Source: a virus
Lineage: Duplodnaviria; Heunggongvirae; Uroviricota; Caudoviricetes
IMG/VR virus record: IMGVR_UViG_3300022871_000009
Coordinates: 1 to 64,000 of that record
Strand: one strand, 5' to 3'
Length of the DNA stretch: 64,000 nt
The translations under genes were made by a program, and so were the position numbers. Shown piece by piece: positions 6,970 through 60,034 of this stretch; the first letter of the stretch is position 1, and each line of letters starts with the position of its first letter. The notes beneath the pieces are model-generated. The model saw only the letters and a list, made by a program, of their open reading frames with translations. It made no database searches and had not been told where the DNA came from.

Positions 6970-6972
6970 AGT

Positions 6973-7380: not shown

Positions 7381-7440
7381 TTACAAGAGATTACATAGAC
7401 ATTTGGAATAAATTGTTAGTTCGTAGTCATTATACCACGA

Positions 7441-7782
7441 TTAATCCTTTTTGTCAAGTTCTTCTTTCTCCTCCTTAGGAGCGGAGCGAAAAGCTTGGTT
7501 GATTTTGTTGTTAGGATTTTTGTATTCGTTCATCACCATTGACTTCAGGCTCCACAAATTTGTAATTAGAGCTCTTGGGTCAACTTTCAACTTGCCTTGC
7601 CAGAATTCATTGACTGATTTAGACAACTCATCTGTTGGCTCAAAATTGAAATATCCAACTGGATTACGCTTCTCCCCTTCTATCTGGTAGTCTACTCTGA
7701 CAATATCAAATTTAAGAGTCACGAGTGTTGTTGCTAGGTAAATGTCCCTAGTAGAAAAAGTAGTCTTTTCCTTATTTTCCAT
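7441..7782 (-). CDS. hypothetical protein
   Basis: 113-aa ORF preceded by a promoter-like motif. Confidence 0.45.
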   Translation of the reverse strand: MENKEKTTFSTRDIYLATTLVTLKFDIVRVDYQIEGEKRNPVGYFNFEPTDELSKSVNEFWQGKLKVDPRALITNLWSLKSMVMNEYKNPNNKINQAFRSAPKEEKEELDKKD

Positions 7783-12035: not shown

Positions 12036-12060
12036 CAAGTTTAGAGTAATATGGTATAAT
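12032..12060 (+). promoter_or_regulatory. consensus sigma70 promoter (TTGACA-17-TGGTATAAT)
   Basis: CACTTGACAAGTttagagtaataTGGTATAAT, followed by AAAAGGTCGA as at 8737. Confidence 0.6.
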
Positions 12061-12116: not shown

Positions 12117-12737
12117 ATGTCAATATTTTCAGACGAAAATAAAGTATCTGGAAGCTGGGCTTCCTTTAAAGTAGTAGGAGACAAAGTAGAAGGTACACTT
12201 ATAGACAAGCGAACCACTTTCAATAAATTGAGTGGAAAAGACCAAATAATCTACGAGTTGAAAGACTCAGAGGATAATATAATCCTCGTTGGTGGTAAAC
12301 CTGCCGTAGATGCACAAATGAAACACGTTAGGTTAGGTCAGATTGTAGGATTTGAGTTCACAGAAGAACGTAAAGCTACAGTACCTGGTCATAGCCCTAC
12401 CAAGATTATCCAAATATTCGCCAACGTTAAAGTTGTAGACGAAGAATGGTTAGCAGTTCAAGAAGCTGCAAAAGAACTTGGTGGAACTGTCACTCAATCT
12501 CCTGCAGATGGTTCAGAGGAACCAAGTTACGAACCTGTAGAAGATAAAGTTGAAGAACCTGAAGTACCTGATTTTTCAGAAGGTGCCTCACAAGCAGAAG
12601 AAATTAATACTCTCGCAAAAGCTAAATTAGGTGCCGAAACTGATGCTGACGTACAAGCAAAAGTAATGGAGAGCACTAAACTTGCCTTTATCGAAGATAA
12701 TTATACTGCGATTCTAGAAGCTCTTAAAAAATTGTAA
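12117..12737 (+). CDS. hypothetical acidic protein, probably a highly expressed early protein
   Basis: 206 aa. The C-terminal half is very acidic (EEPSYEPVEDKVEEPEVPDFSEGASQAEE). Directly downstream of a consensus promoter. Confidence 0.5.
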   Translation: MSIFSDENKVSGSWASFKVVGDKVEGTLIDKRTTFNKLSGKDQIIYELKDSEDNIILVGGKPAVDAQMKHVRLGQIVGFEFTEERKATVPGHSPTKIIQIFANVKVVDEEWLAVQEAAKELGGTVTQSPADGSEEPSYEPVEDKVEEPEVPDFSEGASQAEEINTLAKAKLGAETDADVQAKVMESTKLAFIEDNYTAILEALKKL

Positions 12738-12738
12738 A

Positions 12739-12768
12739 CCCAAACTCAAACGACTTGTCGTTTGGGTA
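12739..12768 (+). terminator. stem-loop after the 12117..12737 gene
   Basis: CCCAAACtcAAACGACttGTCGTTTGGG inverted repeat. No clear U-tract. Confidence 0.35.
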
Positions 12769-13206
12769 GTGTCGCCCTGCCTAAGGTGGTTCCCCCTCCT
12801 TTCTGCCTGGGTAATCAGGCGATACTACTTAAACTATAATTTACTGAGTGTTGGGTTGGCTGAATAAACTCTTCGATAGGGAGTTAAAGCACAGCGAAAG
12901 TGGCATAGGAGTCATCATTAGCTGATTAGCAAGACAATTACAATTATGTAAAATGTACTATCGCGAAGAGCCTGTAAATAAACTGAATCAGGCCAGTTTC
13001 TACAAAAACACATTTTTGCTTCCTCCTAGGTTGGGTGAAGGTGTGAGGGACTGTTGGGCAAGTTCTGACTGCGTTGTCGGAAGCCCAGGTGAGCAGGGTA
13101 GGCCCTGTGTAGCCTAAATAAATAAAAGCTGAATAACGACTTGCTATGCAGGAAACCATAATCCTGTACCAAGCACTTAGTAAATTATATCTAGAAATAT
13201 TAAAGT

Positions 13207-13713
13207 ATGCCTACCGGTATCTACAAACGTAAATCATGTACATCCACAACAAAAATTAAAATAGGGAACGCCAACATAGGAAAAAAGAATGGTGTATATA
13301 AGCATGGCATGGTAAAAACAAAATTTTATAGGCATTGGAGAATAATGAAAAGTAGATGTTCTGATAAAAATAGACCGTCCTATTACAATAAGGTATCTGT
13401 TTGCAAAGAATGGACCGATTTTCTAAAATTTAAAGAAGATACACATAAATCATATATTAACCATGTAAAAATGTTTGGAGAGGCTAACACAACTCTAGAC
13501 AGAATTGATGGAAACGAAAACTATCACAAAGACAACTGTAGGTGGGCAACAAAAGAGTTGCAGGCTAATAACAGAAAAAATACGTTATTCTTTAAATTAG
13601 ATGATAAAAAATATACTATAAGAGATTTATCTAAATTAACTGGAATAACTTATAAAAATTTATTTAACAGATTGGTCGTTCACAAATGGCTAATTAGTAA
13701 AGCAATTAAATAA
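13207..13713 (+). CDS. free-standing HNH homing endonuclease (HNH_3/NUMOD-like)
   Basis: TLDRIDGNENYHKDNCRWATKELQANN matches the HNH_3 signature. Basic N-terminal region. Confidence 0.65.
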   Translation: MPTGIYKRKSCTSTTKIKIGNANIGKKNGVYKHGMVKTKFYRHWRIMKSRCSDKNRPSYYNKVSVCKEWTDFLKFKEDTHKSYINHVKMFGEANTTLDRIDGNENYHKDNCRWATKELQANNRKNTLFFKLDDKKYTIRDLSKLTGITYKNLFNRLVVHKWLISKAIK

Positions 13714-13714
13714 T

Positions 13715-14749
13715 ATGATGGGCGTAATCGGGGATATGCATTTACGTGAAAAACTTGGATATGCTGATTATCTACCTGATAAGCGTATCCCAGAAAAAGA
13801 AGCTGTTCTGAAATTTATCAGAAAGAAGTTTGAGAAATGCGATTCAATAGTATTTGTAGGTGACCAGCTTAACAGCAGGAACAACATATCAGAAGTAATT
13901 AGAGGATTCGTGCAGTTTGTAGAAACGTTCAATGATAAGAAAGTTTACATACTTGCAGGTAATCATGAGAAAAAAGGAGACGGTAAAAGTGCCATAGATT
14001 TCATGCGGGAGATAGACAAACCCAACTGGACGATAATCACAGACGATATACTCGTCACAGATATGAATGGTATAAAAGGAGCGTTCTGTCCATACTTCTA
14101 TAAGACAGAACTAGAAGTTGATACAAATGAAAAAGGTGCTAAAAAATTAATGAAAAAACTGGAAGCGGCTGGTGAAGCAGATATAATATTCCACCACCAC
14201 GCTGTGACTGACACTACTACAGAGGGAGGTACTCCGACCAGTATATTTGATGAGATAGTCCTATCTAGAAAAGCTCTTGAAAAGAAATACAAACTAGTAG
14301 TTGGAGGTCATGTACACAAACCTCAGATAGTAGATAAAACTATTGTAACTGGAAGTGTGTTTACACATGACGCTGGAGAGGTAGAGAAATCAATCTACAT
14401 AATTGATGAGAAGACATTGAAGGTAGAAACTATCAACTTACCTGTGAGACCTATATATAAGTTGGTTGACCCAACTGAAGAAGAGATAGGTAAACTGAGT
14501 GACAATGGAATAGCTAAAGTAGAACTAAAGAAAAAGTTGAATGCTAATAAGTTGATGGCTCTAAAAGAATTACTAGAAAAGAAACTGGATGCCTACGTTC
14601 TTCTAGAGAACTATGAAAAAGAAAGAAAGAAAGTTCATTTCGAAGAAGGCATGTTAGACTTCAGCATAGAGAACTTGCTGATAGAATACGCAAAACAAAA
14701 TAAAATCCCTAAAGGGAAGTTATTAACAGCATGGGAAACCATTAAGTAG
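13715..14749 (+). CDS. sbcD: SbcD/Mre11-like metallophosphoesterase nuclease
   Basis: Calcineurin-like motifs GDMHL, VFVGDQLN, LAGNHE and GGHVHKPQ in canonical order. Confidence 0.75.
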   Translation: MMGVIGDMHLREKLGYADYLPDKRIPEKEAVLKFIRKKFEKCDSIVFVGDQLNSRNNISEVIRGFVQFVETFNDKKVYILAGNHEKKGDGKSAIDFMREIDKPNWTIITDDILVTDMNGIKGAFCPYFYKTELEVDTNEKGAKKLMKKLEAAGEADIIFHHHAVTDTTTEGGTPTSIFDEIVLSRKALEKKYKLVVGGHVHKPQIVDKTIVTGSVFTHDAGEVEKSIYIIDEKTLKVETINLPVRPIYKLVDPTEEEIGKLSDNGIAKVELKKKLNANKLMALKELLEKKLDAYVLLENYEKERKKVHFEEGMLDFSIENLLIEYAKQNKIPKGKLLTAWETIK

Positions 14750-14755
14750 AACTGT

Positions 14756-14920
14756 ATGGCTAGAAAGATATACAACAAAATAATGTCTCTGAAAGCACTT
14801 CCATGTGCTCTTGGTTTGCACAGGTGGGTAAAACTTTCTATCCCAAAAGTTGGACAGAATAGCAGAGTGCATAAAGGTCGATGTACACATATCTGCTCAA
14901 AATGTTATAAATTAAAATAA
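14756..14920 (+). CDS. possible 54-aa Cys-rich small protein, not in the ORF track
   Basis: Manual translation MARKIYNKIMSLKALPCALGLHRWVKLSIPKVGQNSRVHKGRCTHICSKCYKLK. Fills the gap between the sbcD-like gene and the SPFH gene. Confidence 0.3.
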   Translation: MARKIYNKIMSLKALPCALGLHRWVKLSIPKVGQNSRVHKGRCTHICSKCYKLK

Positions 14921-14928
14921 AATAAAAT

Positions 14929-16278
14929 ATGTATATATTAATTGGACTAGGTGTAGTCTTTGTACTAGTAGTACTATTCTTGGCCACCTACAAAGTAGTT
15001 GACCCAAATGAGGCTCACATCGTAGTTAAGTTCGGTAGTGGTAGGAAGCTATATGCTCCTAAATCACAAGATGCAGAAGGTAAAGAAATACCTTCTAAAA
15101 CAAGTTACTTCTTTATCCCAAGATTGATGACAAGGGAAATTCTTCCTTTGACTAATGTGAAGATGAACATTCCAGAGATTCATTTGAATGATATCGAAGT
15201 TGCCCCTTTCGTGTGTGATGTAATTGCATGGATTCACGTTGATAATCCTATCATCGCCGCAGAAAGATTAAACGTTAATCATCCAGAAGGAACCTTCGGC
15301 TCATTAGGCGAGGACCTTAAAGGTATCGTACACGCTGTAGCTCGTGAGGTTGCTATGAGACAAGAGATTCTACAAATCTTACGTGATAGAAAAACCTTTT
15401 CAGAATCAGTTAGTAAAGCTGTAGACGGGGTTCTAAAATCATGGGGTGTAGAGTTAATTAACTTGGAAGTTATCGACATCAAAGATGATGCTTCAAAAAC
15501 TTCTAGAGTTATCGCTGATTACGAAAGTATCAGAAAAGTAAAAGTTAACACAGAAGCTCGTAAAGAGAATTCTGGACGTGATAGAGAAGCTGTAGTAGTA
15601 GAACAAGAGAATAGAGAGGCTGCTGAAATCGCTACTGCTGAAGCTGAAGAGAACTTAAGAAAAAGACAAATTAGTAAAGATAAAGAAATTGGTATTTCTG
15701 AACAGCAACAAGCAACAGAGGTTGCTAGAGCTGCTGAAATTGCCAATGAACAACGAGTTTCTGCAGAGAAGACTTTGCAAGTTGGTTTAGCTGCAGTTAC
15801 AAAGGAAGCTACCATTGAGGAAGCCCTTGGTCAAGGTGAAGCAGTTAAAATTAAAGGTGAAAAAGAAGCAGAAGTTATTACTCTAACAGGTAAAGCTCAA
15901 GGTAGTGCTATCGAGGCGAAAGGTCTTGCTGATGCCGTATCCAAAGATAAGATGGCAGAAGCTATGAAGAAATTTAATGATGCTGCTACGAACATTGAGA
16001 AGATTAATGCTTGGAAAACAGTTGAAATGTCTAAATATAGTGCTCTCGGTGATGCATTGTCTAAAGCTGATTTGAAGCTTGTTTCATCAGGTAAAGGTGG
16101 TAACCTATTTGGATTCCCTCTAAACGCTGAAACTGGTGCTGACCTTGGACAAATGTCAGAAGCTATGGGTGGAGGAAATAATCCAATCCAAGGAATTGGT
16201 GACTCTATCAAGAGTGTACTAAATAACCTTGTGGGTTCTAATAAAGAAGCTCCTAAAGGCCAACAGGATAACTCATAG
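14929..16278 (+). CDS. SPFH/band-7 (flotillin-like) membrane protein
   Basis: N-terminal TM helix (ILIGLGVVFVLVVLFLA). SPFH-like core. Long Glu/Ala-rich coiled-coil C-terminal half typical of flotillins. Confidence 0.7.
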   Translation: MYILIGLGVVFVLVVLFLATYKVVDPNEAHIVVKFGSGRKLYAPKSQDAEGKEIPSKTSYFFIPRLMTREILPLTNVKMNIPEIHLNDIEVAPFVCDVIAWIHVDNPIIAAERLNVNHPEGTFGSLGEDLKGIVHAVAREVAMRQEILQILRDRKTFSESVSKAVDGVLKSWGVELINLEVIDIKDDASKTSRVIADYESIRKVKVNTEARKENSGRDREAVVVEQENREAAEIATAEAEENLRKRQISKDKEIGISEQQQATEVARAAEIANEQRVSAEKTLQVGLAAVTKEATIEEALGQGEAVKIKGEKEAEVITLTGKAQGSAIEAKGLADAVSKDKMAEAMKKFNDAATNIEKINAWKTVEMSKYSALGDALSKADLKLVSSGKGGNLFGFPLNAETGADLGQMSEAMGGGNNPIQGIGDSIKSVLNNLVGSNKEAPKGQQDNS

Positions 16279-16283
16279 AGCCT

Positions 16284-16586
16284 ATGAAAGTATTCGCAAT
16301 AAAATATTCTTTCAAGAACAAAGATGGAAATAACATGTGGGGAATGAGAATGAATGTGGCCAATGGCCTCGAGGAACTTATTTCAACCACAGAAAAAAAT
16401 CTAGAAGAAGAAGAAGATGCTATTAAAGGCAGTTTTGAACTTGATATGCATTTATCGATGAAAATGGCTAAACTTTTCGATGAAATTAAGCGTTGTTCTA
16501 AAGAAGAGAATATAGAGAAAGAAACAGTCAGTGAAATTACTGCTGACCTCAAAAACTTTGACAACTTGATTACAGATAAATATTAA
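16284..16586 (+). CDS. hypothetical protein
   Basis: 100-aa acidic ORF. Confidence 0.4.
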   Translation: MKVFAIKYSFKNKDGNNMWGMRMNVANGLEELISTTEKNLEEEEDAIKGSFELDMHLSMKMAKLFDEIKRCSKEENIEKETVSEITADLKNFDNLITDKY

Positions 16587-16590
16587 CCCT

Positions 16591-17139
16591 ATGATAGTAC
16601 TCGGATTAGACTTGTCGTTAGTTGGCACGGGTTGTGTCGTGCTTGATGACGGAAAAATGAAGACATCAAGATTAATAACAAGTAAACCGAGTGGAAAGAA
16701 TCCTAAAAAAGAGTTAGAGAGGCTCCTGGGCATATGCAAACAGATTAGCATTATAGTGGATATGCATGACCCAAAGCTAGTCTGTATCGAAGGCATCGCA
16801 TTTATGTCTCGAAATTCAGGAGCTCTCTCTCAGCTCTCAGGGTTAAATTATCTTGTAAGAAGACTCTTACATGTCAGAGGAATAGACTTCGTTATTGCAG
16901 CCCCAACAGTACTCAAGAAGTTCGTAACAGGAAAAGGAAATTCTCCAAAAGAATTCATGCTCCTAGAAACATACAAAAGATACGGTGTCTCATTCAACGA
17001 CAACAACCTCTGCGACGCCTACGGGCTAGCGAGGATTGCCGAAGCGACACTAGACGACAACCTAAAACTAACAAAATTCCAAGCGGAAACATTAATTAAC
17101 GTAAAAAACGCATATGAAGAAAGTAAAACCTGCAGCTAA
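16591..17139 (+). CDS. ruvC: RuvC-like Holliday junction resolvase
   Basis: N-terminal MIVLGLDLSLVGTGCVVLDD matches the RuvC motif (hGhDPGxxxTG) with a catalytic Asp. Length 182 aa. Confidence 0.7.
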   Translation: MIVLGLDLSLVGTGCVVLDDGKMKTSRLITSKPSGKNPKKELERLLGICKQISIIVDMHDPKLVCIEGIAFMSRNSGALSQLSGLNYLVRRLLHVRGIDFVIAAPTVLKKFVTGKGNSPKEFMLLETYKRYGVSFNDNNLCDAYGLARIAEATLDDNLKLTKFQAETLINVKNAYEESKTCS

Positions 17140-17416
17140 ACCAATGAAGAGAGTTGCAAAAAAGATTACAAAAAAGAAAGTTGCTAAAAAAGATGATGGA
17201 ATAGCATTGCTTACTAAATGGCAAGTAGATGTTGTCACTAAGTGTTTTATGGACAAAACTGCAAAAGCCATATACAAATTTAGTAAAGACACTAGCATGC
17301 CTAAAGAAATGATGCAGAAGATGCTAGAAGACGCTCCAAACGCTGCTGAACATATCGTAGAAGATATCAACACAGCAATAGCATGGGAAATTGCTAAAAA
17401 AGAAATTTTAAAATAA
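17114..17416 (+). CDS. hypothetical Lys-rich protein
   Basis: 100-aa ORF with a basic N-terminus. Confidence 0.4.
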   Translation: MKKVKPAAKPMKRVAKKITKKKVAKKDDGIALLTKWQVDVVTKCFMDKTAKAIYKFSKDTSMPKEMMQKMLEDAPNAAEHIVEDINTAIAWEIAKKEILK

Positions 17417-17420
17417 ACCT

Positions 17421-17756
17421 ATGACTGAAAAGACACCAGAAACTCCAACAGAAGCCCCAAAAGAAGCAGTAAAACAACAAGAGCTACAGGTGCACAAAAC
17501 CATCGTTCCGATGTTGTGTCCTCATTGTAGCAAAGAAATCATGGTTGCTTCTAGGTCTTATCTACCTATTGTAGAATGGGTGCTAAGACAAGAAGACTTG
17601 GATAAAGCAAAAAGCACTGTTATAGAAGAGGTGCAAAGCTCAAAACTAACTGACGAAGAGAAGAAAGAAGTAATTGAATGGTTGAGCAAAGAAGACTTTT
17701 CATTCGGTCCAGCAGAAATGGAAATGATACTTGAGAGAGTATTAAATAAGAAATAG
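17421..17756 (+). CDS. hypothetical protein with a CPHC motif
   Basis: 111-aa ORF. Confidence 0.4.
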   Translation: MTEKTPETPTEAPKEAVKQQELQVHKTIVPMLCPHCSKEIMVASRSYLPIVEWVLRQEDLDKAKSTVIEEVQSSKLTDEEKKEVIEWLSKEDFSFGPAEMEMILERVLNKK

Positions 17757-17760
17757 ACTT

Positions 17761-18591
17761 ATGAAAATATTAATCTTTGGTGCAGGATGGATAGGCAAAC
17801 TCTGTAAAGAATACTGGGGCGATGAAGCCATACTTATAGATGAGTTTATCAAAAGTCCAGGACAAGCTGGGCACTTTATAGAAAAACATAAACCAGACGC
17901 AGTGCTTAACGCTGCAGGTATAGTAGGTAAACCTAATGTAGATTGGTGTGAAGACCATCAATTCGAAACATTTGAAGGCAACACTCAGTTACCGTTATTG
18001 ATTGCAAACGCTTGCCGCAAATATGGTGTCTATATGTTACATATTGGCACTGGTTGTATCTATTACGGATACAAAGATGGAGGCTGGCTTCCAGAAGACT
18101 ATGCTAACCCTGTCGCTGTATACACTCGTACAAAATACGCCGCTGACTTAGTTCTAGCAACTCTACCTAACGTAGGTATAGCTCGTATCAGAATGCCAAT
18201 CCACTCTGTTCCTAGTCGAGCAAACTTGATTGACAAATTAGCTTCGTATCCAAAAGTTGTAGATGTAGAAAATAGCGCTACAGTTGTAGAAGACATGCAA
18301 ATGGCATTCTATAAATTGATGGAACAGAAGGTTGAGGGTATCTTCCATGTAGTGAACCCAGGTTCTATCACACACAAGGAAATCCTCAAGCTATATGAAG
18401 AACATGTAGATGAAAATCATACTAACGAATGGATTACTGCACAAGAGCTTACAGACTTAGGTCTAGCTTCAAAAACTAGGTCTAACAATGTTCTAAATAC
18501 AGAAAGTTTAGAAGAGCTCGGTATTGAAATGCGACCTATAAGAGTTGCTGTTGCAGACGCCATGGAAAAATATAGCAAACTTAAAAAATAA
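17761..18591 (+). CDS. NAD(P)-dependent sugar-nucleotide reductase/epimerase (RmlD-like)
   Basis: Rossmann MKILIFGAGWIGK. YxxxK (YTRTKYAAD). Adjacent to rmlB/rmlA. Confidence 0.55.
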   Translation: MKILIFGAGWIGKLCKEYWGDEAILIDEFIKSPGQAGHFIEKHKPDAVLNAAGIVGKPNVDWCEDHQFETFEGNTQLPLLIANACRKYGVYMLHIGTGCIYYGYKDGGWLPEDYANPVAVYTRTKYAADLVLATLPNVGIARIRMPIHSVPSRANLIDKLASYPKVVDVENSATVVEDMQMAFYKLMEQKVEGIFHVVNPGSITHKEILKLYEEHVDENHTNEWITAQELTDLGLASKTRSNNVLNTESLEELGIEMRPIRVAVADAMEKYSKLKK

Positions 18592-18596
18592 CAGCT

Positions 18597-19556
18597 ATGA
18601 AACTATTAGTAACTGGAGGGGCAGGCTTTATAGGGTCAAACTTTATCCATTACTGGATGGAGCGACACCCAGCCGATGAAATATTAAATGTAGATAAACT
18701 AACTTACGCTGGTAATTTAGACAATCTCAAAGGTGTAGACAAATTAGATAATTACACTTTTGTACAAATGGACATCTGTGACCCAAAAATGGAAAATTCA
18801 ATAAAATGGTGTGACATAGTAGTGCACTTCGCTGCTGAAACACACGTTGATAATTCCTTAGAGTCAGCAGATGCATTCATCAAAACCAACGTGAATGGAA
18901 CTTACAACATTCTAAAATACGTACAAAAATACGATAAAAGAATGCACCATATTTCTACGGATGAAGTGTTTGGCTCGCTGCCTCTGGGAACTGATGAGAA
19001 ATTTAGCGAAAATACTCCATACTCTCCTAGAAATCCTTACTCAGTTACAAAAGCTGCCGCTGATTACATGGTTAGATGTTTCCATGATACGTATGGAACA
19101 AAGATAACCATCAGCAACTGCTCTAACAACTACGGACCACGTCAGCATATAGAGAAAATGATTCCTAAAGCTATCACCAACATCTTACAAGGAAAGACAG
19201 TCCCAGTATATGGTACAGGAGAAAACGTAAGAGATTGGTTGCATGTTACAGAACATTGCCGTGCTGTAGAAGCAATAATTTACAGAGGTAGAATAGGAGA
19301 GACTTATTGTGTTGGTGGTATGGATGAGGGTATAAGCAATTTGCAGTTGGTAGAAACAATGGCTGATATGCTACAACTCGATTCAAAGGATTGTATAAAA
19401 TTTGTAAAAGACAGGGCGGGACATGACCTGAAATATGCTGTTAACTGGAATAAAATTAACGGAGAACTGGGCTGGTCCCCAACATTAGACTTTGAAACTA
19501 ATTTAGCAGACACTATTCAGTGGTATAGAGAAAACCGTTGGTGGTGGAATGAATAA
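18597..19556 (+). CDS. rmlB: dTDP-glucose 4,6-dehydratase
   Basis: MKLLVTGGAGFIGSNF...DKLTYAGNL...YSVTKAAAD. Typical RfbB sequence and length. Confidence 0.85.
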   Translation: MKLLVTGGAGFIGSNFIHYWMERHPADEILNVDKLTYAGNLDNLKGVDKLDNYTFVQMDICDPKMENSIKWCDIVVHFAAETHVDNSLESADAFIKTNVNGTYNILKYVQKYDKRMHHISTDEVFGSLPLGTDEKFSENTPYSPRNPYSVTKAAADYMVRCFHDTYGTKITISNCSNNYGPRQHIEKMIPKAITNILQGKTVPVYGTGENVRDWLHVTEHCRAVEAIIYRGRIGETYCVGGMDEGISNLQLVETMADMLQLDSKDCIKFVKDRAGHDLKYAVNWNKINGELGWSPTLDFETNLADTIQWYRENRWWWNE

Positions 19557-20313
19557 AATTATGTCAAAAGCAAAAATAAAACAATGTAAAGGTATAATTT
19601 TAGCAGGTGGTTACGGCACGAGACTAAAGCCAATGACCTCTGTTACAAATAAACATCTTCTACCTGTGTACAATAAGCCGATGATTTATTACCCAATAGA
19701 CACATTGGTTTCCGCAGGGATTAAAGATATCATGATTTTGACTGGTAGTGAGCATGCGGGAGACTTCATCAACTTACTTGGAGACGGTTCAGACTTCGGA
19801 GCAAGTTTTACCTACCGACCGCAACAAGGTGCTGGTGGAATTGCTCACGCATTGGGCCTGTGTCGTGATTTTGCAGGAGATAGCCCAATTGCTGTAATCC
19901 TAGGAGATAACATCTTTGAAGATAATATCAAATCTAGAGTTCTAGCATTTGAAAGTGATTACTCAAAAGCGTCAATCTTTCTTAAGAAAGTAATGGACCC
20001 AGAGAGATTCGGTGTTGCAGAAATAGAAGGAGATAGAGTCACTACTATTATAGAAAAACCCGAGAATCCTAAATCTAACTTCGCTGTCACTGGATTGTAT
20101 TTCTACAATAACGCAGTTTGGAATATTATAGATAGTCTAAGTCCATCAGAACGTGGTGAATACGAGATAACTGATGTAAATAGTTGGTACGTAAACAACG
20201 GTCTCATGAATCATGAGATACTAGAAGGATATTGGTCAGACGCTGGAACTCCAGATAGTTTGTACCGCTCTTCTAAATACGCCTACGAAAAAGAATATAA
20301 AAGTAAAGAATAA
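19549..20313 (+). CDS. rmlA: glucose-1-phosphate thymidylyltransferase (short form)
   Basis: GIILAGGYGTRLKPMTSVTNKHLLPVYNKPMIYYPI matches the canonical RmlA N-terminus. Confidence 0.85.
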   Translation: MNKIMSKAKIKQCKGIILAGGYGTRLKPMTSVTNKHLLPVYNKPMIYYPIDTLVSAGIKDIMILTGSEHAGDFINLLGDGSDFGASFTYRPQQGAGGIAHALGLCRDFAGDSPIAVILGDNIFEDNIKSRVLAFESDYSKASIFLKKVMDPERFGVAEIEGDRVTTIIEKPENPKSNFAVTGLYFYNNAVWNIIDSLSPSERGEYEITDVNSWYVNNGLMNHEILEGYWSDAGTPDSLYRSSKYAYEKEYKSKE

Positions 20314-20315
20314 TT

Positions 20316-22427
20316 ATGTTGGCACTCAAGGAACTACAACTTAAGAATTTTCTAAGTCATAGCGACACGAAAATTGAATTCAAACCTAACCAGAAGATGC
20401 TTATTGATGGCAAATCTGGGGCAGGTAAATCTTCAATTGTGGAGGCTATCGTTTGGGTGCTATACGGAAAAGGAAGAACTGACAATAGGTCCTTGGTAAG
20501 ACAAGGAGAAAAGTCAGGTAAAGTAGTTTTGGTGCTGAGCACGACGGAAACTGGCGAAGTTTTGAAGATAGAGAGGGAAGCAACGCTTACAGGTAAGAAC
20601 ACCCTCAAAGTCTCTAAACAGACCAAGAAGGGCAATTTCTTGCCAGTTAAGGTAAATGGTTTACGTGCATTACAAGAGCATTTAGAGACAGAGATTTTAA
20701 ACTCTTCGTATCTGTTGTTCATCAACTCTATCGTTTATCCTCAAGATAGTATAGACAGTTTTGTAAAACAAACAGCGGTCAAAAGGAAAGAGATTATACT
20801 CGAGATTGCTAATGCTCAGAATTATGATGAGTACTATGACAAAGCAAAGGAAGCTCTCGCCAAGACAATCTCTGATACTGATAAGAACGATGCACTGATT
20901 CTAAATCTACAATCTCTGATAAAAGGAGATAAACTAGAGACAACAAAAACTGACGAACTTGAAAAAGACTATGCTACAAAAAGTGCAGCGTTAGAAGTTC
21001 AAAAGAAATCTCTAGAGGAATTATCTACAGCGCTATCATCTACACTTGAAAAAAGAAACAAAGCTAACGAAGTAAAGAGCAAAATTGCAGATGCAACTAC
21101 TAACAAGAAGATTCTAGAAAGTCAGATAGAAGAGGCAAACACCTCTTTGATTGGCTTACTAACAAGAGATTTATCTGAAGAAAAAAAAGAGCTAGAGAAA
21201 CTCCCTGGGGTAAGAAAAGATTTTGATAAAATTGAACAAACAGAAGAAGCAATGAGGAAATGGGATGAAGGACTCATCAAGTTGATGAACCTCAAACCAA
21301 TAGACTTCAACTTCGATACTGATATCAACTATCTGAATGAGCAGTTGATTTCTGCGCTAAAGGTAGATAAGTTTGTTTGTCCAGAGACCAAGAAGGAATG
21401 TCCATACATGAATAAAGACAAGAACGACCATATTGAACGTTTGAAAGATAAACTGAAAAGCAAAACAGAACAAAAAACGGCATACTTGGTAGAAGAGGAA
21501 AAGTACGTTAAACAAGTTGAGACATTAGGAATCAAACCTGAAGTAGATATAGCTTCAAAAAACTTTACTACTCGTGAGTTAAAGAAACTAGAGCTACTTG
21601 AGAATGAGATAAAGAAAACAGAAGAAACAATGGAAGAGCGTAAGAAAGATTATACTGACGTGATTACACAAAATAACATTACTATTAAAAAAGTAGATGC
21701 TGATATAGAAGAGTTGAGTGGCGGATTACCAAATACGGATGTTCTAGATACCGAAATTAATACATACATCGCGAAGCAGATGAAGCTACAAGTATCTGTC
21801 AATGACTTATCTGTCGTTACATCTGATATCAAATACAAACTATCAACAGCCCAAGGGGCAGCTAAAAGAATAGAGAAGAATGAGGCGTCAGTTACTAAAC
21901 TGAAAGAAGAAAATGTTAAATTATTAGATGAAGGAGAAGGATTCAAGTTGTTAAAAGGTGCCTTCAGTCAGAATGGAGTAAAGGCAATTGTGATAGATTA
22001 TATCATCCCTCGTCTAGAAGAGAAGATAAACAACATTTTGGAGCGCCTATCCAGCTTCAGGATACGCCTAGAGACGCAAAAATCAAGCGTTAAGGGCGAT
22101 TCCACCATAGAAGGTCTCTTTATCACCATTTTCAACGAACAAGGCTTAGAATTCAATTTCGACAATTATTCAGGTGGAGAAAGACTTAAGATAATTGTAG
22201 CCATATCAGAGGCTCTGGCAGAGATTCAGAAGATTGGATTCAGAGTTCTAGATGAATTGTTTATTGGCCTTGATGAAGAGTCAACTGAGAAGTTTGTAGA
22301 AGTGATGGCCACTCTACAAGAAAGATTCGACCAAATGCTCTGTATCTCACATCTACGTAATATCAAAGATACGTTTGATGAGAAAATAGAGATTGTTAAA
22401 AATAATGGAATATCTAAAATTGCGTAA
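20316..22427 (+). CDS. sbcC: SbcC/Rad50-like ATPase
   Basis: Walker A GKSGAGKSS. Long coiled coil with a CPETKKECPY zinc-hook-like CxxC. Signature YSGGERLK. Walker B VLDELFIGLDEE. H-loop ISHL. Confidence 0.8.
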   Translation: MLALKELQLKNFLSHSDTKIEFKPNQKMLIDGKSGAGKSSIVEAIVWVLYGKGRTDNRSLVRQGEKSGKVVLVLSTTETGEVLKIEREATLTGKNTLKVSKQTKKGNFLPVKVNGLRALQEHLETEILNSSYLLFINSIVYPQDSIDSFVKQTAVKRKEIILEIANAQNYDEYYDKAKEALAKTISDTDKNDALILNLQSLIKGDKLETTKTDELEKDYATKSAALEVQKKSLEELSTALSSTLEKRNKANEVKSKIADATTNKKILESQIEEANTSLIGLLTRDLSEEKKELEKLPGVRKDFDKIEQTEEAMRKWDEGLIKLMNLKPIDFNFDTDINYLNEQLISALKVDKFVCPETKKECPYMNKDKNDHIERLKDKLKSKTEQKTAYLVEEEKYVKQVETLGIKPEVDIASKNFTTRELKKLELLENEIKKTEETMEERKKDYTDVITQNNITIKKVDADIEELSGGLPNTDVLDTEINTYIAKQMKLQVSVNDLSVVTSDIKYKLSTAQGAAKRIEKNEASVTKLKEENVKLLDEGEGFKLLKGAFSQNGVKAIVIDYIIPRLEEKINNILERLSSFRIRLETQKSSVKGDSTIEGLFITIFNEQGLEFNFDNYSGGERLKIIVAISEALAEIQKIGFRVLDELFIGLDEESTEKFVEVMATLQERFDQMLCISHLRNIKDTFDEKIEIVKNNGISKIA

Positions 22428-22428
22428 T

Positions 22429-23109
22429 ATGACAAAAGAAACAATATTAAACATAATCAGAACTAACGTAGTCCGTGGTGGTGTAGAGCAACTAATAGAA
22501 TTCTTAGAGACTTCTGATTTCTTTACCGCTCCTGCTTCTACACAGTTCCATGGTTCAACAGAAGGTGGGTTAGCAGAACATTCCTTGGCAGTATATGGTA
22601 TCCTAAAAGATAAAAATCAAGCCTTCTCACTTGGATACTCTGAAGAAACGATTGCTATTACAGGATTGCTACATGATATCTGTAAGGTCAACTTCTACAA
22701 GAAAAAAGAATTCGAATCAGCTTCTGAGCCTCAACTAAGATATCTAAAATCTTTATCTGGTACAGACTTCGCTGGTCAAAAACTAAGCAAAGGAACAGCG
22801 TCGAAATTGATAGAGCAATACAAAGGAACTAAAGCTGGTGAGATTAAAAACCTGAATGCTCCAGAGTGGATAGTAGATGACCAATTACCTATCGGTCATG
22901 GAGAAAAATCAATATTCGTTATAGAGAAGTATATCCACCTGACTGATGACGAAGCTATGGCCATAAGATGGCACATGATTTCATTCGACCCAGGCATCCA
23001 CTTTAATTATCCATCAGGTTTTCCTTTCAGACAAGCATGCGAGAAATGTAAGTTGGTGGCAGCTATCGCGACATCTGATTATGAATCTGATAAACTACTT
23101 GATAAATAA
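22429..23109 (+). CDS. HD-domain phosphohydrolase
   Basis: H...HD motif (HSLAVYG...LLHDICK). Start taken at the ATG 2 nt after the sbcC stop; the track ORF starts at 22393. Confidence 0.6.
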   Translation: MTKETILNIIRTNVVRGGVEQLIEFLETSDFFTAPASTQFHGSTEGGLAEHSLAVYGILKDKNQAFSLGYSEETIAITGLLHDICKVNFYKKKEFESASEPQLRYLKSLSGTDFAGQKLSKGTASKLIEQYKGTKAGEIKNLNAPEWIVDDQLPIGHGEKSIFVIEKYIHLTDDEAMAIRWHMISFDPGIHFNYPSGFPFRQACEKCKLVAAIATSDYESDKLLDK

Positions 23110-23113
23110 CTCT

Positions 23114-23581
23114 ATGGTCAAGAAAAACAATAAAATGAAATTACATATCAATGCGAAATTACCATTGCAACTACACATCTTTACTGTTCGACCTAAGAGT
23201 TTCTTGGATGCGACAATGCCAGAGAGGATGGAAATGGCTCTAGCATATAAAATTGAGGGAGCATATGCAAGCATGGAAGGTAATTACGGGCCTAGAATGG
23301 ATATGTACAACTTCAAACATCACGGTGGTATAGATATAGATAACATTCTAAAAGCACTTGATGGAATCCCTATATCTGGAAGCAAGAAAGTAGTACAGCC
23401 TAAAATGACTATAAAGATTGTGGACGACAACCCTACGGAAAAACGAAGCGAGAATATAGACAGCTACTTGTTCAACCTGAAGTATGTGAAAGACAAGTTT
23501 TCTAAGATTCTGACAGATACTGACAAAAAATCTCTAGACAGAATAATTAATAAGGTTGGTAAACACCTTGCTAAAAAATAA
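23114..23581 (+). CDS. hypothetical protein
   Basis: ORF. Start placed at the first ATG after the upstream stop. Confidence 0.4.
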   Translation: MVKKNNKMKLHINAKLPLQLHIFTVRPKSFLDATMPERMEMALAYKIEGAYASMEGNYGPRMDMYNFKHHGGIDIDNILKALDGIPISGSKKVVQPKMTIKIVDDNPTEKRSENIDSYLFNLKYVKDKFSKILTDTDKKSLDRIINKVGKHLAKK

Positions 23582-23585
23582 CCCT

Positions 23586-23792
23586 ATGAAACTTACAGAA
23601 GAACAATTACGAGAAGAGTTCGTAGCAAAAGCAGAGAAGTTTAAAGAAGACATGATTGCTAGATTTGATGTCGGAAGAAAGAAATACAACAACGATATCG
23701 ATGAAATTGACTACGACAAAGAGATAAAAGAAGAAGAGTTAGACGTAGCTATTTATCGAATAATGCAAGAAATTAGTCAACAAAATAACTAG
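23586..23792 (+). CDS. hypothetical protein
   Basis: ORF. Start at the MKLTEEQL ATG after the upstream stop. Confidence 0.4.
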   Translation: MKLTEEQLREEFVAKAEKFKEDMIARFDVGRKKYNNDIDEIDYDKEIKEEELDVAIYRIMQEISQQNN

Positions 23793-23793
23793 T

Positions 23794-24111
23794 ATGGAAC
23801 AACAAATAATATTAGAACGGTGGGATAAACTGAGTGATGAACAAAAATTCACTTACGTTACAGCCGTATTTAAGGAAATTAAGACTAAAGAAGACTACAA
23901 AGGTTTCGAATGGTTAGAAGGTAAAGAGCCTAATATTGGTCAAATAATGGAATTTTTAGGAAAAGATTTACTAGAAGTACAGAACGTTGGACTTATTAAT
24001 AAATGGATTGTTGGTCTACACATTGGAGGAGGAGATATAAAAGATTTTACTAACGTAGAACCAGTATATGCTCTCTGGGAAGCAGCGGAGTATAAATTAA
24101 ATAATCTATAG
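23794..24111 (+). CDS. hypothetical protein
   Basis: 105-aa ORF. Confidence 0.4.
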   Translation: MEQQIILERWDKLSDEQKFTYVTAVFKEIKTKEDYKGFEWLEGKEPNIGQIMEFLGKDLLEVQNVGLINKWIVGLHIGGGDIKDFTNVEPVYALWEAAEYKLNNL

Positions 24112-24112
24112 T

Positions 24113-24505
24113 ATGGAATTTTTAGGAGCTCTAATAATGTTAACACTACTTTTTATACCGGTAGGAGAGGCCCCGCCAGCAGGACCTGTGTTGCATGAGG
24201 AGATATTCCCAATTGAAATCAGCCTTGAAGTTGTACGTGAAGAAATTATCAAACAAGCTACCGAAGTAAGCTTCGATGTTAATTTAGCATTGTTATTAGC
24301 AGATTGCGAAAGTGATTTCGTTTACAATGTTAAGAACAAATACTCATCTGCAAAAGGTGTCTACCAATTCACTGACCCAACGTGGAAATGGATTAAAGCA
24401 GAAGGTCATCAGTATGACTATCAGGAGAATATCAAACAATTTTTAAAGTATTATCCAAAGTATCCTGGGTGGTGGAAAGAGTGTAATATAATTTTAGACA
24501 TATAA
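24113..24505 (+). CDS. small membrane-anchored lytic transglycosylase-like protein
   Basis: N-terminal TM helix. LLLADCESDF...AKGVYQFTDPTW resembles the SLT catalytic Glu-Ser and GLMQ/TW motifs. Confidence 0.45.
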   Translation: MEFLGALIMLTLLFIPVGEAPPAGPVLHEEIFPIEISLEVVREEIIKQATEVSFDVNLALLLADCESDFVYNVKNKYSSAKGVYQFTDPTWKWIKAEGHQYDYQENIKQFLKYYPKYPGWWKECNIILDI

Positions 24506-24580
24506 CTACGAAAAACAAACATGAGATTGACCACTTAGACGCTATTTATATTTACGATAAAAAATCTTAATTTAAAAAAT

Positions 24581-24946
24581 ATGACTGACTACAAAAAACT
24601 ATACGATGATTTCATAACAACGTATACCACTGGTCAAACTAGTGGAGAAGAGACTGGAGCTATGGTAGCTATGATGGCACAATGCTATTGTGAAGCCAAC
24701 ATCGAACTTGGCAGAAGCGATAGAATATTCGCAAAAGCCTACGCGATTATAGTTGATTCTATTGACGAAGCTAGCGGGAAACCGATGAGCGTTTCAAAAG
24801 CTGATGTCTTAGCCAAAGCAACAGAAGAATATTCTATTTATAGTACATCGAAAGTTCATTTACAAAATATCGAACAATGTATTAATGCACTGAAATCTTT
24901 ACAAAAAGGAATTCTAAACGAATACTCACACGTCAGCAGTATCTAA
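24581..24946 (+). CDS. hypothetical protein
   Basis: 121-aa ORF. Confidence 0.4.
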   Translation: MTDYKKLYDDFITTYTTGQTSGEETGAMVAMMAQCYCEANIELGRSDRIFAKAYAIIVDSIDEASGKPMSVSKADVLAKATEEYSIYSTSKVHLQNIEQCINALKSLQKGILNEYSHVSSI

Positions 24947-24969
24947 ATCACGCCCAAAAGCCCACACTT

Positions 24970-25221
24970 TTGGTGTTTATGGTAAACAAAAAAATTTGTC
25001 CAGTTTGTTGTGAGGAATTTGAACCGAAGGTGTCCCACCAGACATACTGCCATCGCAAGTGTTTCAAAAAAGCTTACAACAAAAATTTCAAAGTTAGCGA
25101 TAAGCCTCATTATTGCTGCCCTTGTTGTGGTGCTAAAGTTAAACTAGATTTTTTCCCAAAAAGGAATATAAAAAGATGGTTAGATTTTGAATGCCCCTCA
25201 TGTGGAAATGGAAAGAAATAA
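24970..25221 (+). CDS. zinc-ribbon protein (four CxxC pairs)
   Basis: CPVCC, CHRKC, CCPCCG and CPSCG motifs. Confidence 0.45.
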   Translation: MVFMVNKKICPVCCEEFEPKVSHQTYCHRKCFKKAYNKNFKVSDKPHYCCPCCGAKVKLDFFPKRNIKRWLDFECPSCGNGKK

Positions 25222-25223: not shown

Positions 25224-25249
25224 AAGAAGAATATTATTCTTCTTTTTTT
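25224..25249. terminator. bidirectional rho-independent terminator between convergent genes
   Basis: AAGAAGAATA/TATTCTTCTT stem flanked by A-run and T-run. Overlaps the last codons (KKEE) of the minus-strand 1798-aa gene. Confidence 0.5.
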
Positions 25250-28200
25250 GATGAAAGTCCAGCAGTCATAGCCCCTAGAGTTCCCAATAACATGGTATAG
25301 AGAGGTGTTTTTCCAGAGTACCATTTTTTATCTGCACCTTGTCTCATGTTGTTTTTTACATCTTGTATAAACATGTAACTGGCTTTCTTTGCAAGTATCC
25401 TTGCTTCTTCCTTTGTTACGTCTTTTTGAGTTAGCGCTTCTAAGAACCATGTTAGTGAATTGAATTGTACTTCCTCAAGCTCTCTAGAAGTTTTCACAAA
25501 AGCAGAGTCTCCAGTGGACTCTCCAATTTCAGCACGAATAACCATATCATTTGTGTTCTCCCATGACTGTCTATCTTCAAGCCACTTTCTTTCTATTTTT
25601 TCGGAAACCCAATCAGGCAAAAATTCTTTTTTACCTGTCTCATCCCATCTATCTATAGCAGCTTTATCACTTCCTGAAAGTTTCTTGTATTCTACACCAA
25701 GTTTTTCTAACTCCGTTTTATTCTGTGGACCTGCAGTAAATTTACGAACAGCTTCATACATGTCGAACTGCTCAATTTTACTTTGTGCTTGTTTTTCAGT
25801 CATCTTGATATTTCTTCTCTTTGCATCTTTCAACATATCAGAGACCTGTTTTTCTTTGGCTGTAAACCCACCTCTTGCATATGTCCCAACCTGAATTCTA
25901 GCATTAGGATATGTTTCTTTTATACTTTTAACAAAGTTCTTCAAAACTTTAGGCAATTTATCAAATCTCTCTAGATTTACTAGTTGGCTAAGTTGAGAAA
26001 ATTCTTTAGTTACTGAAATATCATCCTTATGAAGAGTCCCGAGGGGTTTATCTATTTCAATATGTCTCCATGTTTCTTTTTTCCCACCTCTATCTAACCA
26101 TTTGTACCAGTCACTTATCGAATCTTTGATTCCCTTGAAGAACTCACTACCCATATCTTCTCCTTTGTAAAGTTGTCTACCAGAAGCAATGACTTCTTTT
26201 ATTTCAGCAGCTTGTTTATCAGGACTAACAGACTTTTTGATATTTTTTATCAACAACTCATTTTCATTGATTATATCATTTAATGTATAGTCACTTTTTT
26301 TCTTTCCGCCATATTTAGTTCTGAAATTTTTAGCAACATCGCTCTTACTGTTCGCTGTCTCTACTTTTTTACCAAGTTCTGATAACTGCTTATATAACAG
26401 GTTCTCTCTTTTCTCATTTATTCTAAGCATTTCTGTTGGAATAGCAGACTTGTTGGAGCTACCGGCTGGTTTTACAAATACAGTCATTCTTTCATCTGTT
26501 TTCCTAAATTCTACCTTATACTTTTTCTTCTGTTGTTCTGGTAACCAATTATCACCTAATCCTCCAGAGTACTCAAGGTCAGTCATTTCGAATGGTTTAA
26601 GGTACTCTTTCTGCTCTTGTAAATGGTTTTTTAATTGTTTTCTAAGTGTCTCTCTCTCAGCAAAATCAAGAATTGCTTTCTCAGTCTTATTCCCGGGAAT
26701 ATAGCGTGTTGTCACTGGAATGTCATCAACATTTTTGTTCATTATCTCAATTAACCTTTCATACTTCTGCTCAGTACTCGCCTTATTTTTTCCACCGAAC
26801 AATGTGTCCTCTGCCTTTACAAGCTTTTCTTTAATTAGTGAAAACTTGTTGTTGTATTCTTGCTTAGCTTTTTCTTTGGTCAATGTAGGAAGCTTTTCCC
26901 AATTTTGAGTTTTTTCTTCAAAAGCTTTTTTGAATTTCTTTCCAGCTGATTCTTCAGGAACTGCTATATCAACAGGATTTTTATCCTTAGTTTTGTTAAA
27001 TTTTTCAAATCTTTCTTTAGAAGATGTGATGGCTTTTTTTGCAATACTTCTAGATTCTTCTCCAGTTGCTTTTGTCTTTAAATTAAAAGCAGATTTCGGT
27101 CTTTTTTTCCAATCAACAATTCTTTCTGAAAATATATGGTCCATTGTCCCATCTTCTTTTCTTATTAACAACTTTCCACCTTGAGCCTCTTGGTTGCTTA
27201 AAATAGCTACTTCCTCATCAGATATCACTTTTTCTTTTTTTCTATCTACTTTGCCAGGGACGTACCCAAGAACTTCTCCAGAGGTTTCTGATATCGTTCC
27301 TTTTGAATCTAAACTCTTATGTCTAAGAGTAATAGTTTCTCCTGTTTTAAATGTCCCTTTCTTAGCCAACTCATCCACAAATACAGTTTCGTATCTTTTG
27401 GTTTTAAAGTTCAAACCTCTCTCTGGATTAACTATTCTTTCCGATAACAAACTAAAGTCATTCGTTTGATATTGTTTCTGTGCTTCTTTTAGAGATACCA
27501 CAGATACAATTGATTTCTTTCCATCTTTTTCAACTTGATATTTTGTTGCTATGTCTTCACCAGTTTTAAATCTAGAGGACTTTGTGGTTTCTCCATTATT
27601 TTTGTGGAAAACTACATATTGGTCTTTTCCTGTTTTATCTCCGTTTTGTGTTAATTTAGGAATTACATCACTCTTGTATTCATTCTTTATTTCTCTACCA
27701 GACGCTATAGCCTTTTTTGCAGTCTCTTTCGCTTCAACCTTCTTCTCTAATGCTTTTTTTGGTGTCACAAAACGCTCTTTAGCACCAACTATAGCTTTTT
27801 TCGCCGTCTCCTTGGCCTTCTTCTCAACCACCTTGGCTGTTTCTTTAACTGCATCCATCTTCTTTGAGAATCGTTCCTTGAATGGAATATCTTGCATAGG
27901 AAGTTGTGGTTGCTCTGGTTGTATATTTTGTGCTATCTCTCCTGTAGCCTGTCTTGTTGGTCGTCCTTGTAATTCAGCATCGTTAAACAAATACATGTTA
28001 TCTAATTTTGCTCTTTCTTCAGCAGGTAATTTTCTTAAATAACCATCTCTTTTCATTATCAAAGTATAATATCCGTCACCATTGCTATTTAGAACTCCCT
28101 CTCTTTTTAATTTTGTTATTGTATTTACGACATCTTTAATTCTAATATTTTTAGCGTTTTTGAGCATAGTTGTAGCTGTGGCTTCATTCATGTAAGACCC

Positions 28201-54274: not shown

Positions 54275-54280
54275 AACTAG

Positions 54281-54730: not shown

Positions 54731-54747
54731 ATTAAATTAAATGAATA

Positions 54748-55071: not shown

Positions 55072-55113
55072 ATATTTTGAGATTAAGTTAATAAAATTTT
55101 TTAATCTAGTGAT

Positions 55114-55145
55114 ATTATAGCATAAGTCCTTATCTTCTCGTCTAC
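55114..55145 (-). promoter_or_regulatory. promoter-like site with the AGGACTTATGCTATAAT element
   Basis: Reverse complement ...gagaagatAAGGACTTATGCTATAAT. -35 is weak. Confidence 0.4.
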
Positions 55146-57481: not shown

Positions 57482-57489
57482 GCAAATTA

Positions 57490-58686: not shown

Positions 58687-58687
58687 A

Positions 58688-59278: not shown

Positions 59279-59289
59279 ATTTTATCTTT

Positions 59290-60030: not shown

Positions 60031-60034
60031 ATAA

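Follow-up and report, generated by a model that had tools for sequence, protein, structure and literature searches.

A phage cassette that likely makes nucleotide-activated L-rhamnose with a bifunctional epimerase/reductase in place of RmlC and RmlD

We analysed a three-gene nucleotide-sugar cassette of an uncultured tailed phage, located at 17761-20313 in positions 1 to 64,000 of the IMG/VR record IMGVR_UViG_3300022871_000009 (the whole 64,000-nucleotide stretch is called the window). As judged from the sequences of its products, the cassette likely encodes a complete three-enzyme route from glucose-1-phosphate to nucleotide-activated L-rhamnose, for which the cupin epimerase RmlC would not be needed. 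In the first-pass annotation, made from the DNA letters alone, the missing RmlC had been taken as a sign that the product may be a 4-keto-6-deoxyhexose derivative rather than L-rhamnose. Our results contradict this, as the product of the first gene is a predicted bifunctional enzyme by its sequence, its predicted structure and a catalytic Cys/Lys pair. The coordinates of the three co-directional open reading frames (ORFs) had been given exactly, and their products are assigned as follows (NDP, nucleoside diphosphate).

17761-18591, + strand: ORF1, 276 aa, predicted NRS/ER (UGER)-type bifunctional NDP-4-keto-6-deoxy-D-glucose 3,5-epimerase/4-reductase
18597-19556, + strand: ORF2, 319 aa, RmlB, dTDP-D-glucose 4,6-dehydratase
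19549-20313, + strand: ORF3, 254 aa, short-form RmlA-type glucose-1-phosphate thymidylyl/uridylyl-transferase

The steps of the route are proposed from homology and conserved catalytic residues. ORF3 would join glucose-1-phosphate and dTTP (possibly UTP) to give NDP-glucose, which ORF2 would convert to NDP-4-keto-6-deoxy-D-glucose. ORF1 would then epimerise this intermediate at both C3 and C5, with an acid/base pair formed by Cys99 and Lys159, and reduce it at C4 with NAD(P)H through Thr97, Tyr121 and Lys125, so that NDP-beta-L-rhamnose would be released.

The assignment of ORF1 decides between this route and the earlier one. When ORF1 was compared by phmmer with all PDB sequences, the best match was NRS/ER of Arabidopsis thaliana (4QQR; E 1.6e-40, 142 bits), followed by the UDP-L-rhamnose synthase L780 of Mimivirus (7JID; E 7.4e-27, 97 bits), while the genuine RmlD reductases were matched at E values of 1e-6 to 7e-4 with no more than 31 bits. 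The identity of ORF1 is 38.9% to NRS/ER over 239 aa and 31% to L780. NRS/ER is also called UER1, and the same bifunctional type occurs as the C-terminal domain of RHM. The first-pass wording for ORF1, an RmlD-like Rossmann protein, is fair as a description, given a match of 72 bits to the Pfam family RmlD_sub_bind, but ORF1 is not a true RmlD: it scores 80.5 bits against the RmlD equivalog model TIGR01214, whose cutoff is 224.05, and 28.8 bits against PRK09987, whose cutoff is 308.

The predicted structure leads to the same family. The AlphaFold2 model of ORF1, built on 31 homologues, is confident (predicted local distance difference test, pLDDT, 90.7; predicted template-modelling score, pTM, 0.90), and its fold shows the Rossmann-type alternation of strands and helices and qualifies as a short-chain dehydrogenase/reductase (SDR) of the extended type. 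The top Foldseek matches of the model are 7JID (template-modelling score, TM, 0.87) and 4QQR (TM 0.82), ahead of the RmlDs (18-21% identity). The dinucleotide-binding motif GAGWIG (GxGxxG) occupies residues 7-12, and T97, Y121 and K125 form an SDR reductase triad (Ser/Thr-Tyr-Lys, YxxxK) whose residues line up with those of NRS/ER, L780 and RmlD.

The residues for epimerisation are also in place. In a MAFFT alignment, C99 and K159 of ORF1 share columns with C108 and K175 of L780, and the corresponding pair of Arabidopsis NRS/ER, by the alignment to L780, is presumably C115 and K183. The pair is invariant: it is kept by 119 of 119 homologues from databases and by 24 of 24 viral ones in the alignment, while Tyr and Thr stand at these columns in the RmlDs of E. 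coli (RfbD) and of Escherichia phage muut. Two further motifs of the clade, PNVDWCE and RMPI, are conserved in ORF1, and a neighbour-joining tree places a long branch between the whole Cys/Lys clade and RmlD. For L780, mutagenesis showed that Cys108 and Lys175 are key catalytic residues and essential (PMC9614988), and both L780 and NRS/ER perform 3,5-epimerisation and 4-reduction within one active site.

By every criterion that a sequence allows, ORF1 is a predicted bifunctional enzyme of the NRS/ER (UGER) family. It is an enzyme of sugar metabolism, and the reservation in the first-pass annotation that the 276-aa protein might be unrelated to sugar metabolism can be dropped. Because a bifunctional ORF1 would stand in for both RmlC and RmlD, the missing RmlC is accounted for, and neither an exotic keto-sugar nor a DNA modification has to be invoked, which removes a false lead. 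In the earlier view, ORF1 would be a plain 4-ketoreductase, or the pathway would stop at the keto-sugar, and without an epimerase the product would be dTDP-D-quinovose, D-fucose or another 4-keto-6-deoxyhexose derivative. The window indeed lacks RmlC and ORF1 does match RmlD_sub_bind, as that view would have it, but the Cys/Lys pair, which plain reductases lack, has been kept in ORF1, and its invariance across the clade argues for selection on the epimerase function. Also, the two closest characterised relatives of ORF1 are both bifunctional rhamnose synthases, and none of the enzymes with which a keto-sugar could be tailored was found by Pfam, be it an aminotransferase, a 2,3- or 3,4-dehydratase or a C-methyltransferase. 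We therefore regard a pathway with no epimerase as very unlikely.

The absence of RmlC from the 64-kb window, as the first-pass annotation had noticed, was confirmed by Pfam, by tblastn and by a six-frame search with a hidden Markov model (HMM). The profile search that it had proposed was run on the window ORFs of at least 100 aa in a greedy ORF map, with E thresholds of up to 0.1 for small ORFs and 0.01 for large ORFs, and returned no RmlC homologue and no match to PF00908 (dTDP_sugar_isom) or a cupin. One Fic-domain ORF (about 1587-2108, - strand) was dropped by the greedy map and so was unscanned; its precomputed Pfam assignment is Fic (PF02661). With E. coli RfbC as the query, the best tblastn match in the window had an E value of only 0.19. 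The six-frame search (hmmsearch --max), which takes in every frame without recourse to ORF calls, reached 5.5 bits at best with an HMM made from six diverse RmlCs, for which divergent RmlCs score 130-201 bits in leave-one-out trials. RmlC was not found either in the 9.4 kb past the right end of the window or in the 0.5 kb past its left end. The separate RmlC cupin that would be expected beside an RmlD-type enzyme is thus absent from the window, its flanks and the related loci described below.

The two partners of ORF1 are of bacterial type. ORF2 passes the equivalog cutoff for dTDP-glucose 4,6-dehydratase (TIGR01181, 421.4 bits against 365.1). Its PDB matches are the bacterial RmlBs 6BI4 and 1KEP (E about 1e-97), with 329 bits to 6BI4 compared to 188 bits to the Mimivirus UGD (R141) 6VLO, and it carries the motifs GGAGFIG (from residue 7), TDE (121-123) and YSVTK (148-152). 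ORF3 is an RmlA-type nucleotidyltransferase (PF00483, 192 bits) with the signature GGYGTRLKPMT (GGxGTRLxPxT) at residue 20. It is of the short form, covering only positions 1-235 of the 286-position RmlA equivalog model, and its best PDB match is the short RmlA of B. anthracis (3HL3/4ECM; E 1.2e-80, residues 12-246). Over 239 aa, ORF3 shares 45% identity with RfbA of E. coli, and tblastn with RfbA as the query found it at E 2e-60. An alternative start at 19561 would give 250 aa, the version called in some contigs. The scores of ORF3 are below both RmlA equivalog cutoffs (TIGR01207, 249.6 against 360.65; TIGR01208, 246.7 against 320.25). The earlier statement that rmlA and rmlB are unambiguous therefore holds for ORF2 and is slightly too strong for the substrate of ORF3.

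Since ORF3 and ORF2, which act upstream, are both bacterial dTDP-type enzymes, dTDP is most likely the nucleotide carrier, and UDP is possibly used. The sequences point to dTDP through these partners, yet L780 and NRS/ER take both nucleotides; for L780, the use of both UDP- and dTDP-4-keto-6-deoxyglucose has been reported (PMC9614988).

The arrangement is not confined to one assembly. At least 24 metagenome contigs carry the exact ORF1 protein, and the genes around it run in one order: Band-7, RuvC, two small ORFs, ORF1, RmlB, RmlA and SbcC. Its nearest non-identical relatives are 58-65% identical and, where named, belong to Patescibacteria, also known as the candidate phyla radiation (CPR), for example Magasanikbacteria and Parcubacteria. 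The JGI pipeline labels several of these relatives '3,5-epimerase/4-reductase', and ORF1 is nested within the CPR clade in the neighbour-joining tree. The nearest relatives of ORF2 are mostly from CPR bacteria as well (Spechtbacteria 65%, others 55-60%), with one from Omnitrophica at 59%. Those of ORF3 are in a related phage contig, L012 (72%), and in Patescibacteria (70%), with a few DPANN archaea lower in the list.

A scan with one genome per GTDB species gave about 350 genomes with close relatives of ORF1, and the best 80 of these were examined with flanks of 8 kb on either side. Among these 80 loci, 45 have CPR titles and 33 are titled 'uncultured Gammaproteobacteria' (a third-party annotation, TPA, series of metagenome-assembled genomes, MAGs; within L065-L143). 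Of the flanking segments of these 33 loci, 61% have counterparts in the named CPR loci, at a median identity of 56%, and the GC content is equal; owing to these common flanking genes and GC, we regard the Gammaproteobacteria titles as placeholders and refer to all 80 as CPR loci. Near the ORF1 homologue, 74 of the 80 loci have an RmlB-type gene, 57 have one of RmlA type and none has RmlC, which indicates that the three-gene route with no RmlC is the normal arrangement in CPR bacteria. The cassette of the phage resembles a copy of this arrangement taken from a host, and would have been gained from Patescibacteria. Acquisition of this usual RmlC-free arrangement in turn points to a CPR bacterium as the likely host, and the phage is probably an uncultured phage of such a bacterium; the CPR-like origin of the three genes serves here as a host clue for a phage that has not been cultured.

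Relatives of ORF1 in viruses were sought in IMG/VR. A scan with a single sequence gave one relative only, and an alignment-based scan was needed for more. The latter found 48 loci, examined with flanks of 6 kb, and none of them has RmlC nearby. ORF1 relatives on three phage-sized contigs are 46-61% identical, and most of the others are 28-42% identical, many of them on contigs longer than 100 kb and some labelled as giant-virus MAGs (GVMAG). In 21 of the 48 viral loci an RmlA-type gene is directly upstream of the UGER-type gene with no RmlB within 6 kb; these 21 (within L021-L064, a set of IMG/VR contigs of which many are 100-590 kb long) are mostly on large contigs, with UGER-type products 28-42% identical to ORF1. 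The related contig L012 (IMGVR_UViG_3300032738_000260) is syntenic with the window, with an ORF1 homologue (61%) directly followed by RmlA (72%) at 5971-7558, and no RmlB was found in its 12.4-kb locus, so cassette content varies between related phages. Among 50,697 deposited phage records, there were only three weak matches to ORF1, at 24-27% identity, and 170 records with RmlC. PHROGs v4 has no family for ORF1, which gave a partial match of 39 bits to the generic phrog_540.

Several points weigh against the three-enzyme route to rhamnose. The specificity of ORF3 for its nucleotide and sugar-1-phosphate is a prediction, as its scores are below the RmlA cutoffs. No glycosyltransferase (GT) of the window reaches a rhamnosyltransferase cutoff, the best being TIGR01556 with 22 bits against 200. 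That members of the CPR and phage clade form rhamnose at all is suggested by homology, and with 31-39% identity to the characterised enzymes, both the C4 stereochemistry and the full 3,5-epimerisation are extrapolated. The RmlC search covered about 74 kb, compared to 98.6 kb for the longest contig with the exact ORF1 protein. Finally, the host might supply RmlC, since rmlABCD has been reported in at least one Parcubacterium genome (PMC5220378).

The last two points also favour a different explanation, in which ORF1 would be a reductase only and the 3,5-epimerase would act in trans, coming from a host RmlC or from elsewhere in the phage genome, for example from the roughly 25 kb by which that longest contig exceeds the length covered. 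The lack of RmlB at the L012 locus agrees with it too, as such phages can evidently rely on functions encoded elsewhere. On the other hand, RmlA and RmlB are usually adjacent to the ORF1 homologue and RmlC never is, within the 6-8 kb examined around each of the 80 CPR and 48 viral loci. The epimerase residues are conserved and the ORF1 family is distant from RmlD, and we consider the supply of an epimerase in trans quite unlikely.

A bifunctional ORF1 may instead make another L-sugar, either NDP-6-deoxy-L-talose, with the opposite configuration at C4, or a product epimerised at C3 alone. The modest identity to the characterised enzymes leaves room for this, and SDR reductases of altered stereochemistry exist, such as the Tll-type enzymes. 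A precedent for C3-only epimerisation is Mg535 of Megavirus, a 3-epimerase/reductase relative in which the Cys is also kept (PMC9614988). However, ORF1 conserves both catalytic residues together with PNVDWCE and RMPI, and its RmlB partner yields the normal 4-keto-6-deoxy-D-glucose and not the C5-inverted N-acetylhexosamine intermediate of Mg535. A product other than L-rhamnose from a bifunctional ORF1 is accordingly rated as highly improbable, and L-rhamnose remains the likely product.

The enzyme type is known, and it is the setting that is unusual, a tailed phage and CPR bacteria, alongside bacterial RmlA and RmlB. Arabidopsis NRS/ER resembles ORF1 in fold (TM 0.82), in the Thr/Tyr/Lys triad, in the Cys/Lys pair and in being a stand-alone protein of about 280-300 aa. 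It differs in acting downstream of a UDP-glucose 4,6-dehydratase, whereas the partners of ORF1 are a bacterial-type RmlA and RmlB; and its setting is eukaryotic, whereas the ORF1 clade is in phage and CPR bacteria and is known here from sequences. In Mimivirus, as in the cassette, a virus-encoded dehydratase (R141, UGD) and a bifunctional enzyme (L780) provide rhamnose for viral glycosyltransferases. In Mimivirus the genes lie apart from one another, and a review describes no nucleotidyltransferase as belonging to the pathway, while the three phage genes are contiguous; the dehydratase is R141 in one case and of RmlB type in the other, and the one virus is a giant virus, the other a tailed phage whose capsid gene is of SU10 type.

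Contiguous, co-directional rhamnose genes with RmlB, like those of the cassette, are present in the Escherichia phage muut/phAPEC8 group and in Synechococcus phage S-B43. RmlB, RmlA, RmlC and RmlD follow one another in muut, and RmlB, RmlC and an SDR in S-B43, so that RmlA occurs only in muut. Unlike the cassette with ORF1, these classical phage cassettes have a cupin RmlC together with a true RmlD-type or other SDR that has Tyr/Thr or Phe/Tyr at the epimerase positions, and the classical route is the one taken by deposited phage genomes with rhamnose genes. A case with the same kind of host is that of groundwater Patescibacteriota phages from a 2025 metagenomic study, in which the auxiliary metabolic genes (AMGs) rmlB and 'rmlD' were listed, with no rmlC, and were proposed to enrich rhamnose on the host surface (PMC12911398). 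These phages are like ours in host lineage and in the kind of AMG, as compared by gene names; they differ in that the annotation was automated and the reductase was taken as a plain RmlD, with the bifunctional type unrecognised.

Published surveys assign RmlBCD to bacteria, archaea and phages, and UGER/NRS-ER to plants, fungi, algae and Mimivirus (bioRxiv 10.1101/854612; PMC6556577). In our literature search, which was of partial coverage, no publication turned up in which the bifunctional type is recognised for CPR bacteria or for phages. The 'plant/giant-virus' bifunctional rhamnose synthase appears to be common in Patescibacteria (about 350 species-level genomes) and present in their phages, which widens the range of eukaryotes and Mimivirus stated in the surveys. 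Annotation pipelines name the enzyme 'RmlD' or 'sugar nucleotide-binding protein', and with this mislabelling, pathway calls that require rfbC likely count the rhamnose route of such genomes, and of such sets of phage AMGs, as incomplete. In practical terms, a small enzyme that replaces RmlC and RmlD and probably accepts dTDP-sugars would be useful for the chemo-enzymatic synthesis of dTDP-L-rhamnose.

The cassette is embedded in a tightly packed run of DNA-metabolism genes on the + strand (12117-25221). ORF1 and ORF2 are separated by 5 nt, and ORF2 and ORF3 overlap by 8 nt; the preceding gene ends 4 nt before ORF1, and an SbcC-like gene starts 2 nt past ORF3. Upstream of the run that bears the cassette, at 12032-12060 on the + strand, is a sigma-70 promoter that matches the consensus perfectly (TTGACA, 17 nt and TATAAT, with TG upstream); it overlaps the final bases of the SNF2-helicase gene. 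The scan gave 44 promoter-like sites compared to 39 expected and told little apart from this promoter, and a terminator scan of the + strand showed none that was convincing before about 24954. These features weakly suggest that the cassette is expressed with the replication and recombination genes. Such a position in a tightly packed early/DNA-metabolism run suggests expression during infection, in which the cassette genes would be active and would raise the supply of the rhamnose donor.

The SbcD/Mre11-like gene (13715-14749, + strand) and the SbcC/Rad50-like gene (20316-22427, + strand) are usually neighbours, and here they are 5.5 kb apart. Between them are a Band-7/SPFH gene, a RuvC-like resolvase gene, the rhamnose cassette and three small ORFs:

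16284-16586, + strand: small ORF
17114-17416, + strand: small ORF
17421-17756, + strand: small ORF

The related phage contig L012 is arranged in a similar way.

Probable consumers of the rhamnose donor, as judged from Pfam, NCBIfam and PHROG matches, are encoded in an 11-kb glycosylation block (52390-63402, - strand), which adjoins a 3,664-aa ORF and the genes for adaptor and capsid proteins of SU10 type. It holds four GT2-domain proteins, two of them fused to methyltransferases (MT). One more GT2 gene is in the early region, and its product is a possible consumer. The remark in the first-pass annotation on many GTs is borne out, with six GT-domain proteins in the window. The features are:

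9251-10099, + strand: GT2 glycosyltransferase of the early region (PF00535, 48.6 bits)
52390-53802, - strand: GT2+Anp1-like
53744-54274, - strand: polysaccharide-deacetylase-like
55145-55618, - strand: TagD-like cytidylyltransferase (precomputed Pfam PF01467; HxGH motif 'HYGH'; phrog_7878, 88 bits)
55521-56924, - strand: LicD-like
57490-58686, - strand: MT+GT2 fusion
58688-59278, - strand: Methyltransf_24/CmcI-like, with a weak CmcI/rhamnosyl-O-methyltransferase match
59290-60030, - strand: GT2
60035-61348, - strand: GT2+MT fusion
61969-63402, - strand: GT1/GT4-like

The block is also found in other contigs of the same phage. The cytidylyltransferase ORF, which overlaps the end of the LicD-like gene, was missed by the greedy map, and the two genes together suggest that CDP-activated alcohol or phosphotransfer decoration (teichoic-acid-like or phosphocholine-like) takes place beside that with sugars. 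The RMNT_CmcI match of the CmcI-like protein is 19 bits against a cutoff of 23.

The rhamnose donor would most likely be consumed by the GT/methyltransferase block of the phage itself. Of the earlier idea of a nucleotide-sugar cassette serving the GTs, the RmlA and RmlB types, the lack of RmlC and the plausible supply to GTs all stand, and the need for a separate RmlC does not. As for the acceptor, our guess is an about even chance for the envelope glycans of the host, in line with the proposal for the AMGs of CPR phages, a somewhat smaller one for virion proteins, as in giant viruses, and a slight one for something else. DNA hypermodification, which had been suggested as well, is unsupported, as Pfam scans of the window turned up neither a hydroxymethylase nor a thymidylate-synthase-like gene, nor any of the known families of DNA glycosyltransferases. 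It was rejected, the sole hint being a partial PHROG match of 35 bits between the CmcI-like methyltransferase and 'DNA methyltransferase'.

A bolder reading, which we hold as doubtful, is that the cassette and the 11-kb block form an autonomous glycosylation system in the style of giant viruses, by which a tailed phage of CPR bacteria would decorate its virion with (methyl)rhamnose glycans, for example on the capsid or on the 3,664-aa protein. If it were true, the RmlA-RmlB-UGER hybrid would be a widespread prokaryotic route that has gone unnoticed, and the enzyme of eukaryotes and giant viruses might have come from it.

A second SDR gene (2093-2995, - strand) was considered as a hidden epimerase/reductase and rejected. 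Its 300-aa product is a generic extended SDR (Epimerase, 169 bits) that is GalE/UDP-GlcA-4-epimerase-like, with YGVTK and without the TDE dehydratase motif; it reached no curated family cutoff, and nothing ties it to the cassette. The gene is followed by the Fic-domain ORF (PF02661; about 1587-2108, - strand) mentioned above.

No close relative of the phage was found among the 50,697 deposited phage genomes. Its proteins include an SU10-type major capsid protein and adaptor, a PrimPol-DnaB fusion, a RepO-like protein, an M23 peptidase and a LysM protein (window; L145, 911-2182), and the SU10-type major capsid protein is encoded among the structural genes of the 9.4-kb extension to the right of the window. 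An uncharacterised ORF of 1,798 aa is at 25234-30630 (- strand). The 3,664-aa ORF (41418-52412, - strand), which has no Pfam match, is flanked by the SU10-type adaptor gene (39975-41366) on one side and by the glycosylation block on the other; the GC skew over it is positive despite its - strand orientation, unlike other - strand regions.

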